Below, one piece after another: positions 482 to 25,694 of a stretch of 27,189 bases of DNA. The number at the start of each line of letters is the position of its first letter. Position 1 is the stretch's first letter. The notes under the pieces are model-generated. The model did not search any database. It saw only the letters and a list, made by a program, of their open reading frames with translations, and was not told where the DNA came from. The stretch lies in the UHGV virus genome UHGV-0126599, one strand, 5' to 3'. Origin of the DNA: a virus. A program made the position numbers and the translations under genes.

Positions 482-547
482 TTTATTAGAAATTTGCACT
501 TAAATCAAAAAGTTAAGGACAATTTAACCACCAATCAATAAATTAAA

Positions 548-583
548 GGGCACATTAAAGTACACAATATTTGTGCCCTTCTC
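548..583. terminator. Candidate bidirectional terminator between convergent yciI and invertase genes
   Basis: Inverted repeat aagggcaca (546-554) / tgtgccctt (572-580) with T-rich tracts on both sides. The loop is about 17 nt, so strength is uncertain. Confidence 0.35.
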
Positions 584-599
584 TGTTTCTTTCCCGTTA

Positions 600-1148
600 T
601 CAGCTAGCTGGAAACTTTTTATACAGAGTTGAGAGCCCTACTCCATACGTTTTTGATACGCTTTGTCGTGATTCACCGGTTGCCATCCGCTCCCCCATTT
701 CCCGCCATTGCTCATCCGTAAACTTAGGCCTGCGACCACCAACTCGCCCTTTTGCCCTGGCTACGGCCAGCCCTGCTAAGGTACGTTCGCTATTAAGATC
801 AGATTCATATTGTGCTGCGGAAAGGATGTTACGAAAGTTATAGCGGCCGCTGGCTGTTTTGAGATCCACGCCATCGGTAATACTGCGGAAGTTGATACCC
901 TTTTCCTGTAACTGCTGGAACATCAACAGCGCATGCAGAACGTTGCGGCCTATCCTGTCCAGCTTCCAGACCACCAGTTCATCCCCCGGCTGCATAGTGG
1001 CGATCAGCCGTTTTAGAACCGGCCGATTCGATTTCCTCCCGCTGGCATGCTCTTCAAAAATTTTCTCACAACCCGCTGACTTGAGCGCCGTTAGTTGCAA
1101 TTCAGTGTCCTGGTGGTTTGTTGATACTCGGGCATAACCGTAAATCAT
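600..1148 (-). CDS. Serine DNA invertase (Hin/Gin/Pin/Cin family)
   Basis: Translation MIYGYARVSTNHQDTELQ...GRRPKFTDEQWREM has the hallmark resolvase/invertase N-terminus with catalytic Ser and a C-terminal HTH. ATG at 1148 is preceded by AGGAG; the upstream Met at 1256 in the ORF track is less likely. Confidence 0.9.
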   Translation of the reverse strand: MIYGYARVSTNHQDTELQLTALKSAGCEKIFEEHASGRKSNRPVLKRLIATMQPGDELVVWKLDRIGRNVLHALLMFQQLQEKGINFRSITDGVDLKTASGRYNFRNILSAAQYESDLNSERTLAGLAVARAKGRVGGRRPKFTDEQWREMGERMATGESRQSVSKTYGVGLSTLYKKFPAS

Positions 1149-1152
1149 GGGA

Positions 1153-1179
1153 TTTCTCCTGTTATGAAAACAGGAGAAA
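1153..1179. promoter_or_regulatory. Perfect 11-bp inverted repeat (TTTCTCCTGTT-ATGAA-AACAGGAGAAA) overlapping the invertase RBS
   Basis: Seen directly: 1153-1163 is the reverse complement of 1169-1179. On the invertase mRNA the AGGAG Shine-Dalgarno sits inside the stem. Confidence 0.4.
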
Positions 1180-1200
1180 CGGCGAAGCATCACCAGATTT

Positions 1201-1578
1201 TTGATGGTTATAAAAAAGGTTGGTTTGGGAGAAGCGGCGAAAAGGGATGTGGGCACAGGAGATAATCAGATACCTGATATGTCTTACTGGTCTTCACCGG
1301 CAGGCGGAATTAATTTCCCGAATGGGTTCCAGATGCGATTCGGGACTATCGCTGGTACTGGTGGAAAATTATTTTCTACGCCATTTACAAATCAGTGCTA
1401 TGGCATTGTTTTCGGACAAACATATGGAGCCAACTACTGGATGTTCAGCCCGATGTACAGAGCATCTGATCTGAGTAATACCGGTTTTGCATTCATTAAC
1501 AAAGCCTGGTCTGGCGTTCCGGGGGTAGGTTCTCAGGACGCTGGTGAATCAGTTTTTTATATTGCAGTAGGGTATTAA
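1201..1578 (+). CDS. Alternative tail-fibre C-terminal segment (S'v-like), silent in this orientation
   Basis: ORF runs through the left crossover site; after the shared GLGE residues it encodes a distinct C-terminus (...SYWSSPAGGINFPNGFQMRFG...). It has no promoter or upstream constant part in the current orientation; the fusion to the constant part would be in frame after inversion. Confidence 0.7.
   Translation: MMVIKKVGLGEAAKRDVGTGDNQIPDMSYWSSPAGGINFPNGFQMRFGTIAGTGGKLFSTPFTNQCYGIVFGQTYGANYWMFSPMYRASDLSNTGFAFINKAWSGVPGVGSQDAGESVFYIAVGY
1208..1233. repeat. Left hix/gix-like crossover site of the invertible segment
   Basis: TTATAAAAAAGGTTGGTTTGGGAGAA; its reverse complement shares the first 14 nt (TTCTCCCAAACCAA) with the site at 3005-3030. 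Confidence 0.7.
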
Positions 1579-1579
1579 T

Positions 1580-2023
1580 ATGGAAATGGTTTATAGCGCC
1601 TCAAATAATAGTTTTTTCGCTAAAAATGATGTGGCGAAATATGAACAGGCCGGATGGGAACTTGCTGATATTGTCGAAGTGACATATGACACTTACCTGG
1701 AATTTATTGAAGACAGAACGTTGCAAGGGAAAGTACGCATCGCGGGTGATGATGGCCTTCCCACCTGGGGGGAAATTCCACCGCCAACTCATGAGGAACA
1801 AATTGCCGCAGCCGAACTGGAAAAGCAGCAATTGATTAATCAGGTCAACGAATACATATACAGTAAGCAATGGCCTGGTAAAGCAGCGATTGGTCGCCTG
1901 AAAGGTGAGGAACTGGCGCAATATAATTTGTGGCTGGATTATCTGGACGCACTGGAACTGGTTGATACCTCCAGTGCTCCAGATATTGAATGGCCTACGC
2001 CTCCGGCAGTTCAGGCCAGATGA
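1580..2023 (+). CDS. Tail fibre assembly protein, alternative copy (U'-like)
   Basis: 147 aa; C-terminal motif LDYLDALELVDTSSAPDIEWPTPP typical of Tfa chaperones; ATG immediately after the S'v stop. Confidence 0.85.
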   Translation: MEMVYSASNNSFFAKNDVAKYEQAGWELADIVEVTYDTYLEFIEDRTLQGKVRIAGDDGLPTWGEIPPPTHEEQIAAAELEKQQLINQVNEYIYSKQWPGKAAIGRLKGEELAQYNLWLDYLDALELVDTSSAPDIEWPTPPAVQAR

Positions 2024-2606
2024 CATCCGGCGCGGTGCTCGTATCTGTTGCCGTCACCGCGTCAATGTAATCAAGCACGGCGTTAAGCCGGGTGGTTTCT
2101 GCCTGCGTCAGCTTCCGCCCGGCCTGTAATTTCAGCTGAATCAGACTGATCGAAGCCATTGCAGCATCAATCAGTGACTGGCGCTGTGCTTCTGCCGCTT
2201 CTACTGCGGCGCTATGCTGTGCCTCAGTATCTGTCACCCATTTCTCACCATCCCATTCATCGTATGGAGTTAACGGGGCGATAGTGGTTGTATTTTCAGG
2301 ATATTCGCCAATTTCGGTGATGGTGATTTCATCGCCGTTTTCAGTGTTGTAAACAGTTTCGCCACGATGGTCAGCAACGTATTCCCAACTGGTTAAATCA
2401 GCCTTGCGGCAGATTGCGAAACCTTCTTTTTTGCTGCCCGGCGCATCAACGCAGGAATTAGCTGGAACGCCAGCGCCAACCGGCAGATATTCAACGGATG
2501 AACCAATATATTCACGCGTTTCGCCATTGTAGTTGTAAACGGTAATAAATCCAGCCTCAGTGGCAAAACCGTTTTCATCCAAAGTGATTTTTTTTGTGGT
2601 CATCAT
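1995..2606 (-). CDS. Tail fibre assembly protein, currently expressed copy (U-like)
   Basis: 203 aa; C-terminal motif LDYIDAVTATDTSTAPDVIWPELP; start ATGATGA overlaps the fibre stop; 3' end overlaps the convergent U' gene by 29 bp. Confidence 0.85.
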   Translation of the reverse strand: MMTTKKITLDENGFATEAGFITVYNYNGETREYIGSSVEYLPVGAGVPANSCVDAPGSKKEGFAICRKADLTSWEYVADHRGETVYNTENGDEITITEIGEYPENTTTIAPLTPYDEWDGEKWVTDTEAQHSAAVEAAEAQRQSLIDAAMASISLIQLKLQAGRKLTQAETTRLNAVLDYIDAVTATDTSTAPDVIWPELPEA

Positions 2607-3286
2607 GCTGCCCTTACAATGTAGTTAAATGCAATGTTGCGCGGCCTTGTTTCAGTCCCACCCGTCGCATTAGTTTCCCTACTGGAGGTGCCTCCGGTTT
2701 TTAATACATCATCTGCGCTGGTAGCTGATGTTGCCCCGCTAACTCGGATAGCTAATAAATGCGTATGAGATTGGATTGCTCCTCCCTGCGCAGATAGCAA
2801 TGCACGGCCACTATCTATCCCTCGACCATCATCCCAGCCACGAATAAATTCACCGCGTAAATCAGGCACTTTATTTGTCGGATAAGCCTTTGCCAGTTTC
2901 GGGTATTCTTCAGCAGAAAAAGGCGCACCGTTGCATTTCAGCCAGCCTGTAGGCGGAGTGGCCAAAGGCCACGGGACAGGCACACCAACGGGTAATGCTG
3001 AGCCTTCTCCCAAACCAAGGTTTGTGGTAATCGCTGTCGCCAGCTTTGCCACCAGTCCATCAACGTCACCATCATCGAGCGCGTCCAGTTCGGCGTTCGC
3101 GATAAACTGCCCCAGTACAGCCGCCATCGTCGACGGTTGGCGCAGCGCTTTACTGACCTGTGCGCTGGATGCTTTACCCGAGGAGAATCCTTTCTTCAGT
3201 GCGGTTAGCGTCTCCCATTCCTCCTGCGAGGTAACATTTGCATTAGCATCTGTCGCAAACGCTTTAAAATCATTAGTTCCAGCCAT
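2603..3286 (-). CDS. Tail fibre protein (short constant N-terminus plus invertible variable C-terminus)
   Basis: C-terminus ...HTHLLAIRVSGATSATSADDVLKTGG...RPRNIAFNYIVRAA is typical of Mu S / T-even gp37-type fibre tips. ATG at 3286 overlaps the upstream stop (TAATG); the ORF-track start at 3304 is less likely. Confidence 0.8.
   Translation of the reverse strand: MAGTNDFKAFATDANANVTSQEEWETLTALKKGFSSGKASSAQVSKALRQPSTMAAVLGQFIANAELDALDDGDVDGLVAKLATAITTNLGLGEGSALPVGVPVPWPLATPPTGWLKCNGAPFSAEEYPKLAKAYPTNKVPDLRGEFIRGWDDGRGIDSGRALLSAQGGAIQSHTHLLAIRVSGATSATSADDVLKTGGTSSRETNATGGTETRPRNIAFNYIVRAA
3005..3030. repeat. Right hix/gix-like crossover site inside the tail-fibre gene
   Basis: TTCTCCCAAACCAAGGTTTGTGGTAA: two imperfect 12-bp half-sites around a central AA, resembling hix/gix sites as I remember them; encodes LGLGE in the fibre. 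Confidence 0.7.
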
Positions 3287-3966
3287 TAAAGTAATCTCCC
3301 CCATGCGCCGTCATCAAAACCGGCGATGTATTCGTTATCCATGTCAAATCCAAAGAATTTTGTTCCTTCGGACGGTGTTTCGACCGAGGGTGTTTCAACG
3401 CCGCCAGCCCATACACCAGCAGCTTTAACGGTGAGATAACCCTGTTTGATAGCGGCTATCAGTTCGAGTGACACATCAGAAATATCAGTCTCGGGAAAAA
3501 CCCAGACCGATATCGTCATGTCCTGGTTATCGACGATCTGCATCTTCAGTCCAGAGCCTGCGGTAGCAGCGTCAAGGATGGGAGGCAGAGAGTCGTTCCG
3601 ACCATCCCAGTTGTTGATAGCGATTTTCGCTTTCAGAATGATGCGGTACGTCTCATCACTCAGCGTCGTATAGCCAGAATCAGGATCATATGGCCCTTGC
3701 CAGATGCCCTGGTCATATCCGAGCCCGTCAGTGTCCCAGCTGAAATAAACGCCGCTAATTGGCTGGCTGACTATACGACTACGCCCAATCCACAGGCCGA
3801 GGATATCGAGTTGCACGCCAACCGCCGTATCGATATCGAAGGCTGTTACAAGCCCTGACATAGTGCTGGACACATCAATCAGCGGGCGGGTGCTCAGATC
3901 TATATGGTCAAAAAAGAGTGGCTTGGTAGCGTGGTAGTTAGTGATCAGTTCGGTGTATTTGCTCAT
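3286..3966 (-). CDS. Baseplate wedge/tail protein (Mu gp48-like position)
   Basis: 226 aa ORF between the baseplate J gene and the fibre; ATG at 3966 overlaps the J stop (ATGA). Assignment by synteny. Confidence 0.6.
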   Translation of the reverse strand: MSKYTELITNYHATKPLFFDHIDLSTRPLIDVSSTMSGLVTAFDIDTAVGVQLDILGLWIGRSRIVSQPISGVYFSWDTDGLGYDQGIWQGPYDPDSGYTTLSDETYRIILKAKIAINNWDGRNDSLPPILDAATAGSGLKMQIVDNQDMTISVWVFPETDISDVSLELIAAIKQGYLTVKAAGVWAGGVETPSVETPSEGTKFFGFDMDNEYIAGFDDGAWGRLL

Positions 3967-5162
3967 GAGGTCACCGTGATAGTGACGTGACTCGCAACGC
4001 ATGACGCAGATTCGTCATAAGCAATATCGATATTTCCGCTTGCGACTGAGTCAGAGGATTTGCCGATGAGCAGCTCCTGAATGTCGTAATAGCGAGCACT
4101 GCCTCCGCTTACCACGCCAAGGTTTGCCGGGGAATAAATACGACTCAGCAGAACGTCGTCGCCAATTGTCAGGCCATTAATATAGCCGGCAACAGCCTGT
4201 TTGATCTGCTCGCCGATTTGAGAGGTATACCCGGTAAAAACTTTCAGGGTAATGGCTACGAAAATTGGCACATCGGTAGAGCGTGAAAAACTGATGACGT
4301 GAGGATTACCGTAAGTATCCGGCACCGTGACAGAAGTTGTCCCGTAGGTTGCCGTTCCCTGTCCTTTATTCCCCCTGATGGTCTGGGCTATTTCGGTAAC
4401 ATCCCCACCATCGACGATGGCGGAAATTGAGTGCGGCGGCAGCCCGTTGCTGTCTGTTGTTCCTGTGTCGTTCTCATACAACTTGTGACGTGTCACGCCA
4501 GCAACGTTAGCTATTGCACCGTCGACACCTTCAAACGATGTGATCGATGGTAGCGCGACGCTTTGCCCCTGCCGAATGCGCAGCTCTGCGTCGGTTTCGG
4601 CTGGTGAACCGACAGTAGCCGAAGCTGGGTTGGTTACCGACACCCAGCCGCGAGTCGGTGTGTTAATGGTGGTAATAGTCCCGGCCATCGCCGCAACCGA
4701 ACCGCTATTCGCACATGTGGCCGTCACCAGCACAGTACCATCAACGCCGATCGCTACACTTGCGGGAAAATTCCAGATAATGCCGTTTTTATCCCGTGCG
4801 GAGCCATTCGTGATAGTCGTGCCTGCCGTACCGGTTAACAGAAGGTCAGCAGTAGAGTTTGTCGCTACTTTTCGCGTGATCCCGTTAATTTTCACATTGC
4901 TGCTAAGCGCTGCGGCCTGCGCTGTCGTCGGTGAAAAAGAGTTGTAGATCCCGATAGCGGTGTTGTTAGCGTCATGCACCGCAAGAGCCACCAGCGCGAC
5001 CATCTGCCCGTCTTTGCTGTCTGGTTCGAGGTAGGCATCACTACCGTAAATCTGCCTGAAATAGCTGGTCAGTGTATCTAGGATTGTCTGGTAATCAGGC
5101 GCACTAATCCCCTGGGCGGTTACCGTTGCCGATAGCCCCAGCGTGTCGAGGTTCAAAGCCAT
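3963..5162 (-). CDS. Baseplate J-like protein (Mu gp47 / P2 gpJ family)
   Basis: 399 aa; size, position and sequence character fit the baseplate J family. Confidence 0.8.
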   Translation of the reverse strand: MALNLDTLGLSATVTAQGISAPDYQTILDTLTSYFRQIYGSDAYLEPDSKDGQMVALVALAVHDANNTAIGIYNSFSPTTAQAAALSSNVKINGITRKVATNSTADLLLTGTAGTTITNGSARDKNGIIWNFPASVAIGVDGTVLVTATCANSGSVAAMAGTITTINTPTRGWVSVTNPASATVGSPAETDAELRIRQGQSVALPSITSFEGVDGAIANVAGVTRHKLYENDTGTTDSNGLPPHSISAIVDGGDVTEIAQTIRGNKGQGTATYGTTSVTVPDTYGNPHVISFSRSTDVPIFVAITLKVFTGYTSQIGEQIKQAVAGYINGLTIGDDVLLSRIYSPANLGVVSGGSARYYDIQELLIGKSSDSVASGNIDIAYDESASCVASHVTITVTS

Positions 5163-6290: not shown

Positions 6291-6728
6291 TTATAATTTT
6301 GCTTCTGGATAACATCTACAGCGACCATCAGGACAACACTTTCCCTCCCCGGGATGACCACTTTTAGGAGGCTTACTCCACGAAAATGTTTTCCCATTAT
6401 TTTTAGCGCATTCTGCACACTCGTCACCATCCTCGCAGGAGCGCCAAATATAACGTTTAATACCCAAGCGAGATTGCCTTATCCTCTCTGCCTCGGAGTG
6501 ACGACGGCTGTTTTCGGCGAGGTGTTCAGCATGGCGCGCGTTATCCTTCTCAATTTCTTCTTTACTTCGCCGCTTCCCATTTGCTGGCTTTGATTTTTGG
6601 TAAGCAACCCGTTTATTTCGATTGTATGATTTAATAATTGCGTCTTCATTTCTGCGCTTTTTAAATTTTAAATATTTAACAAATGCAAAAGCAATTACGA
6701 ATAAAATAATAATATATGCAGGTTCCAT
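6291..6728 (-). CDS. Membrane-anchored Cys-rich protein with an F-like C-terminal motif (accessory/moron gene)
   Basis: N-terminal hydrophobic helix (PAYIIILFVIAFAFVKYL) followed by a basic tract, then YIWRSCEDGDECAECAKNNGKTFSWSKPPKSGHPGEGKCCPDGRCRCYPE. AT-rich DNA; start TAATG-coupled to the upstream gene. Confidence 0.65.
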   Translation of the reverse strand: MEPAYIIILFVIAFAFVKYLKFKKRRNEDAIIKSYNRNKRVAYQKSKPANGKRRSKEEIEKDNARHAEHLAENSRRHSEAERIRQSRLGIKRYIWRSCEDGDECAECAKNNGKTFSWSKPPKSGHPGEGKCCPDGRCRCYPEAKL

Positions 6729-7096
6729 TATTTAACCTTTACGCAATCATAAGTTGCATATTGTCTTGGTGCACCCATGCTGGCTTGCAGCCACTGAGCA
6801 TTGAGGATAGCTTTTCCGTTTCGCTTTATGTACTCAAGACCAACCCATCGCCCCGGTTGGTTTGTAGCCATACGCCAATCCATTTTTATATTGTCGTAGT
6901 CTTCTTTTTGTTTCAGAAATGTCAATTTCTGATACTCGGGCTTTGCTCCATTTATGCGAGGAAAGCCGTCATTAGTACCACTCGTTGAGAAAGTGAAATC
7001 ACCGCACTTCATATAGACTTTTCCTGCTGCATTTGCACCAGCAACAGCTGTTAAGCAAATTAAGCCAGAAAATATTCCTGAGATTATCCTTTTCAT
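6728..7096 (-). CDS. Secreted/periplasmic protein of unknown function (accessory/moron gene)
   Basis: Signal peptide MKRIISGIFSGLICLTAVAGANA with a likely AxA cleavage site; two Cys in the mature part; AT-rich; start TAATG-coupled to the hub gene stop. Confidence 0.65.
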   Translation of the reverse strand: MKRIISGIFSGLICLTAVAGANAAGKVYMKCGDFTFSTSGTNDGFPRINGAKPEYQKLTFLKQKEDYDNIKMDWRMATNQPGRWVGLEYIKRNGKAILNAQWLQASMGAPRQYATYDCVKVK

Positions 7097-24929: not shown

Positions 24930-25694
24930 CTATCGCGTGACTTTGTTCAACATCTGGTTTGCGTACTCTTCCTGCTTGATGCACTCACCTACCAGACTTT
25001 CGAAAAAATCCTTGTAAGACCTGCGCCACGTGGTTTCAGGTATATCTATCACCGTTACGCAGATGTATTTACGGACGCTATCAGGTAGCAATCTGGCATA
25101 ACCACGCCCATTGCAGCGCGTACAGGTTTTATATGCAGGAACGCCGCGCTGTAGAATAGTTTTCTCTTTGTCTAATACTGTTCCTTTGCCATTGCACTGG
25201 CATGCGTTGGTCAGAGCACCCTTCCCTTTGCATTTGTGGCAAAGCACCTTAACCATCTCTCTTTTTTCGCTAAGGTGTGGCTGTCCGATATGCTTCATCG
25301 TCATTACTTCAGCTTCGACAAACTTATTTCCATTGCAGCAGTCGCACGTTCTGGTACTGGCGGCGCTCCGGGAGTAATCAGCAAAGGCGAAAGTTGCGAG
25401 AACTTGCATTACCTTTGGCTTAACATCGCTCTCAAGCTTGCGTAAGGCGGCAACCTTATCGCAGTGCTCAATTGCATATTTGGTCAGCAGGTCAATTGCT
25501 CGCTCGCGATCGTAATCGCTGATATCCATCTTACCGAGGAATGCACTGAACCCGAGATCAGCCCGGCTCTGTGTCATTCCGATCGCCGCCATAATGTCAG
25601 TGCCGGTTAATGAGTCAGATGCGGTTGCACGTGGAGCGTCGCTAATCATCGTTGACTTCGCGAAGTGGTATTTCACTGTGTTTTCGAGATTCAT
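24930..25694 (-). CDS. Late-gene antitermination protein Q
   Basis: 254 aa with Cys clusters (CDCCNGNKF..., CHKCKGKGALTNACQCNGKG, CTRCNGRG) typical of zinc-binding Q antiterminators; located just upstream of the lysis cassette; AGGAG RBS. Confidence 0.8.
   Translation of the reverse strand: MNLENTVKYHFAKSTMISDAPRATASDSLTGTDIMAAIGMTQSRADLGFSAFLGKMDISDYDRERAIDLLTKYAIEHCDKVAALRKLESDVKPKVMQVLATFAFADYSRSAASTRTCDCCNGNKFVEAEVMTMKHIGQPHLSEKREMVKVLCHKCKGKGALTNACQCNGKGTVLDKEKTILQRGVPAYKTCTRCNGRGYARLLPDSVRKYICVTVIDIPETTWRRSYKDFFESLVGECIKQEEYANQMLNKVTR

Follow-up and report, generated by a model that had tools for sequence, protein, structure and literature searches.

The fiber segment and its crossover sites

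The sequence under study is UHGV virus genome UHGV-0126599, a metagenome contig (ENA ERZ1311634 NODE_680) of 27,189 nt, the whole of which is referred to here as the window. It begins in the host gene yciI (89–481, YCII domain) and then runs through a prophage, near whose edge lies a putative invertible tail fiber switch, made up of a serine DNA invertase and, between two 26-bp crossover sites, two alternative fiber C-termini with two alternative Tfa chaperones. A sequence-only reading of this region had described the sites as inverted relative to each other (1208–1233 and 3005–3030), the C-termini and chaperones between them as convergent, the adjacent invertase as intact, and the minus-strand C-terminus and chaperone as the pair in the expressed orientation. 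All of this anatomy was borne out by the analysis that follows.

The expressed fiber, form A, is a continuous open reading frame (ORF) on the minus strand (2603–3286; Pfam Collar, 6.2e-15). Its ATG at 3286 is TAATG-coupled to the stop codon of the upstream gene for a DUF2612 wedge protein, and with this start form A is 227 aa long. The constant N-terminal part of 89 residues (3019–3286) lies outside the invertible segment, the right crossover site lies within the gene, and the variable part A (2603–3016) carries the Collar domain. A second C-terminus, B, is silent in the window and is encoded on the plus strand, extending ~119 aa past the junction (1221–1578, within a mechanical ORF of 1201–1578). 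It has no Pfam domain, whereas A has the Collar domain, and the two C-termini are unrelated. Each is followed by its own Tfa gene, the two sets being convergent and on opposite strands. Tfa-A (1995–2606, minus strand, 203 aa; Pfam Caudo_TAP, 8.2e-31) is in the expressed orientation, and Tfa-B (1580–2023, plus strand, 147 aa; Caudo_TAP, 3.5e-30) is silent here. The two chaperone genes overlap tail to tail by 29 nt, and the last 72 aa of Tfa-A share 38% identity with Tfa-B. A search of NCBIfam gave no specific family for the fibers, the chaperones or the invertase, the latter having sub-threshold XisF and Mpi matches only.

A repeat search returned inverted arms at 1208–1234 and 3004–3030 (27 nt, 81% complementary), in which two 26-bp sites can be laid out, each with two 12-bp half-sites around a 2-bp core and with 21 of the 26 positions equal between them. 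The left site (1208–1233, core 1220–1221) reads TTATAAAAAAGG TT GGTTTGGGAGAA and has a degenerate outer half-site; the right site (3005–3030, core 3017–3018) reads TTCTCCCAAACC AA GGTTTGTGGTAA. Written with the segment side first, the left site becomes TTCTCCCAAACC AA CCTTTTTTATAA, to be set beside TTCTCCCAAACC AA GGTTTGTGGTAA on the right, and the segment-side half-site together with the core is equal at 14/14 positions. When up to one mismatch was allowed, this 14-mer had exactly two occurrences in the 27-kb window, one inverted relative to the other, against 0.00 expected (no match in 100 shuffles).

Two inverted 26-bp sites with 12-bp half-sites and an equal 2-bp core are the arrangement seen in the Din family of invertases, and comparison sites were extracted from the records of Escherichia coli K-12, Mu and P1. 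The pix sites of the e14 element read TTCTCCCAAACC AA GGTTTTCGAGAG and TTCTCCCAAACC AA CGTTTATGAAAA, the cix sites of P1 TTCTCTTAAACC AA GGTTTAGGATTG and TTCTCTTAAACC AA GGTATTGGATAA, and the gix site of Mu TTCCTGTAAACC GA GGTTTTGGATAA. The inner half-site of the window is exactly that of e14 pix, the AA core is common to the window, pix and cix, and the 12-2-12 layout is the same. The sites had been likened to hix and gix from the sequence alone. That likeness holds for the two-half-site layout but not for kinship, which is closest to e14 pix and P1 cix with their AA core and not to gix with its GA core. One degenerate half-site, as in the left site of the window, is also a feature of hixR.

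A candidate third site, of the kind that would point to a shufflon-like arrangement, was noted in the baseplate J gene (15-mer CCACGCCAAGGTTTG, 4112–4126). It matches the site center at 13 of 15 positions, but its half-sites are poor and it is probably a chance match. With a serine recombinase and only two sites in the window, the locus does not fall into the shufflon or tyrosine-recombinase inverton class (Rci/sfx, FimB/E). RecA-mediated recombination between the repeats was rejected, as they share only 14 equal bases, which is our own judgement of minimal homology.

Inversion of the segment in public sequences

Both sites encode the residues GLGE in the fiber reading frames, within ..TTNLGLGEGSA.. 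at the right site (minus strand) and within ..KKVGLGEAAK.. at the left site (plus strand). Both alternative C-termini join the constant part in frame, and joining at the core dinucleotide yields a 208-aa fusion fiber composed of the constant part and C-terminus B. That inversion would give an in-frame fusion through these shared residues, and that the opposite orientation should be sought, had been put forward on the basis of the sequence alone, and public data agree with both points. The predicted 208-aa fusion is identical to a deposited protein (P0001; 100% identity, 100% coverage), of which a second entry (P0002) is the same protein read from an upstream start. The contigs that encode P0001, for example L003 (ERZ27293720) and L004 (ERZ917242), carry the same prophage next to yciI and the att80 attachment site. 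Their segment is inverted, with breakpoints at the core positions that had been predicted, so that the gene order is fiber B, Tfa-B directly 3′ of it, convergent Tfa-A, and invertase.

When the window was flipped in silico between 1220 and 3018 and aligned with these contigs, the DNA alignment ran without a gap over 2101 columns, with 14 mismatches to L003 and 15 to L004. Two contigs from other samples (L006 and L009) have the orientation of the window and show no difference from it in the stretch that was compared. Overall, the two forms were about equally frequent among contigs, with seven of form B and six of form A, and the flipped form was present in contigs from samples of at least three data sets. 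Misassembly is unlikely, since the assembly k-mers of 109–127 are far longer than the 26-bp sites, which are thus spanned by reads. Both orientations therefore occur with their breakpoints at the sites, including the left site at 1208–1233, in what is a comparison between lineages rather than within one culture. As judged from these alignments, there has been at least one precise inversion at these sites in the history of the element. Because the flipped and unflipped contigs differ by single-nucleotide polymorphisms (SNPs), it is historical inversion that is demonstrated, and the conclusion does not extend to ongoing switching in a culture.

Two features of the flipped lineage were noted near the sites. 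In L003 and L004 (at ~10276, corresponding to window position 1227) the inner half-site of cassette B is GGTTTAGGAGAA in place of GGTTTGGGAGAA, a synonymous change in a Leu codon, and the two inner half-sites of this lineage are therefore no longer equal. Furthermore, of the 14 positions at which L003 differs from the window, 11 cluster at 2891–3002, the first ~115 nt of the variable part of fiber A, adjoining the right site. Contig L008, which has the orientation of the window, possesses four of the differences in this cluster. The pattern suggests mosaic recombination or gene conversion beside the crossover site.

Parts of the module are widespread, with matches in 2748 of 5426 complete E. 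coli genomes (about half), although none of these covers 80% of the module. With a query made of the constant part and the junction, similarity in most of the matching genomes ended at query position 163–166, which is the end of the 26-bp site at 3005–3030, and different cassettes followed beyond it, for example ones with gp53-like domains. The site therefore acts as a boundary for cassette exchange between phages. Junction searches in the complete E. coli genomes at a coverage of at least 80% found form A in four genomes and form B in none, and they provide no orientation statistics for this pair of cassettes.

The invertase and related systems

The invertase gene (600–1148, minus strand) encodes a full-length protein of 182 aa of the phi80 PinL type (Pfam Resolvase, 3.6e-39; HTH_7, 1.5e-9), and its start lies 60 bp outside the left site. 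The protein has the build of a Din-family enzyme, being a small serine recombinase with an N-terminal catalytic domain containing the active-site Ser and a C-terminal helix-turn-helix. It aligns without gaps over 181 aa with the Gin structure 3uj3 (E = 1.4e-56), and less strongly with gamma-delta resolvase (4e-25). The residues Y5, R7, S9, D64, R65 and R68 and the recognition helix STLYK are invariant among the window invertase, PinE and Gin. At the DNA level, the gene region is 93.5% identical to pinL of phi80, and its identity to the corresponding genes of mEp237 and HK225 is 95.9–99.5% (99.5% for HK225). No minus-strand promoter for the invertase emerged from a simple promoter scan, whose matches were no commoner than in shuffled sequence.

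Where this enzyme departs from its better known relatives is in the features linked to control by Fis. Work from Johnson's laboratory has established that R154 and L155 of Hin contact Fis, that R154D and all substitutions tested at L155 nearly abolish Fis-activated inversion, and that Q151, R154 and L155 on helix 1 of the DNA-binding domain, together with basic residues at positions 47, 48 and 51 of helix B, are conserved in enhancer-dependent invertases (PMC3798978). Gin and PinE have the Q/R/L triad and the three basic residues. The helix-B patch of the window invertase reads K46, R47 and A50 against K47, R48 and K51 of Hin. Helix E reads YNFRNI, as opposed to FFFHVM in Hin, Gin and Pin, so that the positions locking the inactive Hin dimer (F105, H107, M109) are N, R and I. 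Among representatives at 50% identity, YNFRNI was present in only one other full-length protein, 79% identical to that of the window. At F105 and M109 of Hin, about half of the substitutions result in activity without Fis (PMC4513852).

The stretch of the gene that would correspond to an enhancer (+19 to +90; 1059–1130, minus strand) has the position of the cin enhancer annotated in P1. Fis sites were scored with the looser Hubner-Arber consensus, which in gin, cin and pinE recovered a pair of perfect matches at +23 and +71, spaced 48 bp from each other. The strict motif GnnnRWWWWWYnnnC was dropped, as it failed to recover the known enhancer sites even in Mu. Nucleotide identity is 67–69% in the enhancer-equivalent stretch and 54–58% in the rest of the gene, but constraint on an enhancer and constraint on coding are not separable here because the protein is also more conserved in this stretch.

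Immediately 5′ of the invertase ATG there is a hairpin (1152–1180, minus strand) with a 12-bp stem, the 3′ arm of which contains the Shine-Dalgarno sequence AGGAGA. Its predicted folding energy is −25.8 kcal/mol (z = −5.55), and none of 200 shuffles was as stable. The hairpin is kept in phi80, where it is annotated as IR3, and it may throttle translation or terminate read-through from the late operon.

Fiber cassettes that switch by inversion have been in the textbooks since the work on Mu, P1 and e14. The switch of the window belongs to the same class as the G segment of Mu, the C segment of P1 and the P segment of e14, with a mechanism known since phage Mu; conceptually it is nothing new, and its divergent invertase is the only unusual part. 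The closest parallel in layout is the P segment of e14 in E. coli K-12 (stfP/ycfK–tfaP–tfaE–stfE–pinE), which has the same gene order as the window, namely the constant fiber part, a site, a C-terminus, its Tfa, a convergent Tfa, the other C-terminus, the second site and the invertase. Both have short fibers of ~210–230 aa, a 29-nt tail-to-tail overlap of the tfa genes, a spacing of 55–60 bp from invertase start to proximal site, and TTCTCCCAAACC AA as their inner half-site and core. The e14 segment flips in growing cultures (PMC4272514), and PinQ acting in trans is also able to flip it (PMC12529663). The two loci differ in that the window invertase lacks the Fis-contact triad of PinE, in the baseplate neighbor (DUF2612 in the window, DUF2313/YmfQ in e14) and in the cassettes themselves. 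In addition, e14 is a defective remnant in icd, whereas the prophage of the window has a complete late operon and is located at att80/yciI.

Mu (G segment, Gin) and P1 (C segment, Cin) likewise combine constant and variable fiber halves (S/S′) with convergent U/U′ chaperones between inverted 26-bp sites of 12-2-12 layout, beside an adjacent serine invertase, and the AA core of the window is shared with cix. However, their segments are ~3–4.2 kb and encode long fibers, in contrast to the 1.8-kb segment of the window, and the core of gix is GA. The gin and cin genes also have, in their 5′ ends, two Fis sites without mismatch at a spacing of 48 bp, and the enzymes have the residues Q/R/L, where the window has imperfect sites and E/E/R. 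The Hin/hix system of Salmonella uses the same class of enzyme and the same 26-bp site architecture, but flips a promoter rather than coding cassettes, and Hin strictly requires the Fis contacts made through R154 and L155, which are absent from the window invertase.

With the pinL region of phi80, and that of mEp237 and HK225, the relationship is at the level of the DNA itself. The invertase gene and upstream hairpin are 93.5–99.5% identical and occupy the same place beside attP/att80. Phi80 retains one crossover site followed by an internal fragment of a cassette resembling that of fiber B, whereas the module of the window is complete. The phi80 pinL gene (L011, JX871397, 2631–3260) also has a nonsense change of TCA to TAA at codon 173, which removes the recognition helix. 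By this comparison of sequences, the "orphan" invertase of phi80 represents a module that has decayed there but is still intact in the window.

Prophage context and the proposed mechanism

The junction between host and prophage is marked by an att80-like core, ACCATTTAAGAAAGTGT, at 459–475 inside the 3′ end of yciI, which matches the annotated phi80 attP core at 16 of 17 positions; similarity to phi80 starts ~24 bp further in. The integration site is that of phi80 (att80). In the related contigs L003 and L006 the flanks contain a cluster resembling yciA/yciB/yciC (Pfam 4HBT, IspA, UPF0259), followed by ompW and continuing to trpA/trpB, and in the annotated locus of E. coli TOK-001 tonB and yciA–C are named at the same place. 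These flanking genes therefore point to E. coli or a close relative as the host.

The prophage genes in the window are all on the minus strand and include those for NinB, RusA, a Q-like antiterminator (24930–25694), holin, lysozyme, Rz, terminase, portal, protease, major head protein, sheath, tube, tape measure, baseplate hub, spike, baseplate J and the DUF2612 wedge. The late operon ends with the fiber, its last structural gene, and the Tfa chaperone. With terminase, portal, head, sheath, baseplate and fiber all present, the late operon is complete, and a tailocin or remnant is excluded.

The architecture at 3286–27189 is a hybrid one, with lambdoid early and lysis genes joined to a contractile tail (sheath, PhiTE-type tube, baseplate J, DUF2612 wedge). 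By DNA, the nearest named phage is Citrobacter phage Omnitron, which is 98% identical over only part of a query covering 500–3400, the switch region. A stretch of low G+C content (0.46) between the genes for the baseplate hub and the spike is a hot spot for cargo (6291–7096 in the window, 5615–6819 in L003, 5725–6972 in L008). Its content varies from two small ORFs in the window, one of them with a weak sub-threshold Mu-F-like match, to a 296-aa gene with a DUF4236 gene in L003 and L004, and a 114-aa ORF with a Phd-antitoxin/Fic pair in L008.

Given these data, the locus is very probably a functional inversion switch of the Din type (Hin/Gin/Cin/Pin-like) that swaps the fiber tip together with its chaperone, such that an induced population would release two kinds of particle. 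What the data establish is the anatomy of the locus, the in-frame junction, the intact enzyme and the occurrence of inversion in nature at these sites. In the mechanism proposed, for a switch that closes the late operon in a prophage at att80 (yciI) of an E. coli-like host, the serine recombinase encoded at 600–1148 would bind both 26-bp sites as dimers, cleave at the central AA/TT dinucleotide and, through subunit rotation, invert the 1797 bp between the cores. Each flip would join the constant 89-residue N-terminus, by way of the GLGE codons, to C-terminus A (227 aa) or B (208 aa), and would bring the Tfa chaperone belonging to that tip into the late transcript. Upon induction, a population of lysogens would then yield particles with two receptor-binding tips, a bet-hedging device for host range. 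The chemistry of cutting and inversion is presumed by homology with Gin and Hin, that the two tips recognize different receptors or change host range is suggested by Mu and P1, and the resident invertase, rather than another Pin-family enzyme acting in trans, is the presumed catalyst.

A number of observations weigh against this interpretation. The window invertase shares only 55% of its residues with PinE and 52% with Gin, against 78% between PinE and Gin, and so it does not have the close mutual similarity of the interchangeable Din-family enzymes. Its Fis-contact patch is changed, with E150, E153 and R154 for Q151, R154 and L155 of Hin, and the equivalents of the enhancer sites at +23 and +71 have one mismatch each to what is a very degenerate consensus, that at +71 also lacking the flanking G and C. 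The outer half-site of the left crossover site is poor (..AAAAGG as compared with ..AAACC). The two orientations were seen between lineages, which differ by 14 SNPs per 2101 nt, and not at the level of reads within one culture or sample. Finally, pix sites can also be recombined in trans by other members of the Pin family, as those of e14 are by PinQ.

Several of these observations would be accommodated if the switch were frozen or dependent on help in trans, that is, if the segment had flipped in the past but the resident invertase were inactive or nearly so on its own, with no activation by Fis and with a buried ribosome-binding site, so that inversion would occur only when another Pin-family enzyme (PinE, PinQ, PinR or Gin-like) was present in the same cell. 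The replacement of the Hin triad would fit such a view, as changes at R154 and L155 nearly inactivate Fis-activated Hin, and so would the single mismatch in each of the Fis sites, the covering of the Shine-Dalgarno sequence by the hairpin and the fact that flipped and unflipped contigs are distinct lineages. Cross-reaction is plausible as well, the inner half-sites being those of e14 pix and the recognition helix that of Pin and Gin, and inversion of the e14 segment in trans by PinQ, an invertase of Qin, is on record (PMC12529663). However, the invertase gene is intact here, in contrast to the nonsense mutation of the phi80 copy, which suggests selection for function. All of its catalytic residues are conserved, and with N, R and I at the lock positions of helix E, an enzyme that has lost the Fis contacts is not necessarily inactive. 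In switches of this type, moreover, it is normal for the invertase to be expressed at a low level. Taken together, a frozen or trans-dependent switch is considered improbable.

It is more improbable still that the switch mainly serves the lysogen, with a fiber-like protein of the prophage blocking receptors and shielding the cell from other phages. There is a precedent for such a role in StfE2, following the PinQ-driven inversion of the homologous e14 segment (PMC12529663), and the short fibers of the window (208 and 227 aa) belong to the type represented by StfP and StfE of e14, with the same inner half-sites. Unlike e14, however, this prophage has a complete late operon with the fiber as its last structural gene and a Q antiterminator, and expression of the fiber is therefore expected only after induction; a simple promoter scan found no separate promoter for the fiber. 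As for a chance repeat or an assembly artefact without any inversion, the full sites do match at only 21 of 26 positions, and the window and its relatives are metagenome assemblies. Against this, the 14-mer was absent from all 100 shuffles, the sites correspond to the established pix and cix sites, the assembly k-mers (k109, k127) greatly exceed the repeat in length, the flipped contigs come from samples of at least three data sets, and an in-frame junction is not expected by chance. This explanation has effectively been refuted already.

A functional Din-type switch thus remains the preferred interpretation, with a modest lead on how PinL-type invertases are regulated. The absence of the Fis-contact residues and the degraded Fis sites imply that activation of the enzyme may differ from that of its relatives. 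It is conceivable, although doubtful at present, that the PinL-type clade of this prophage and the phi80-like phages has kept sites of the pix/cix type while losing control by Fis and the enhancer, the enzymes being enhancer-independent or differently gated. If so, a Fis-independent invertase of this type would perhaps be throttled by the hairpin over its ribosome-binding site. The intact counterpart found here explains why phi80 has an orphan invertase as well as an "internal fragment of tail collar protein", and the clean natural pair of orientations is a possible positive control for pipelines that call invertons in metagenomes. Should the loss of Fis control prove true, the PinL-type enzyme would be a natural enhancer-independent or differently gated invertase. 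The clade to which it points, with Din-type sites but without Fis-contact residues, makes the evolution of enhancer dependence directly testable with a small enzyme.

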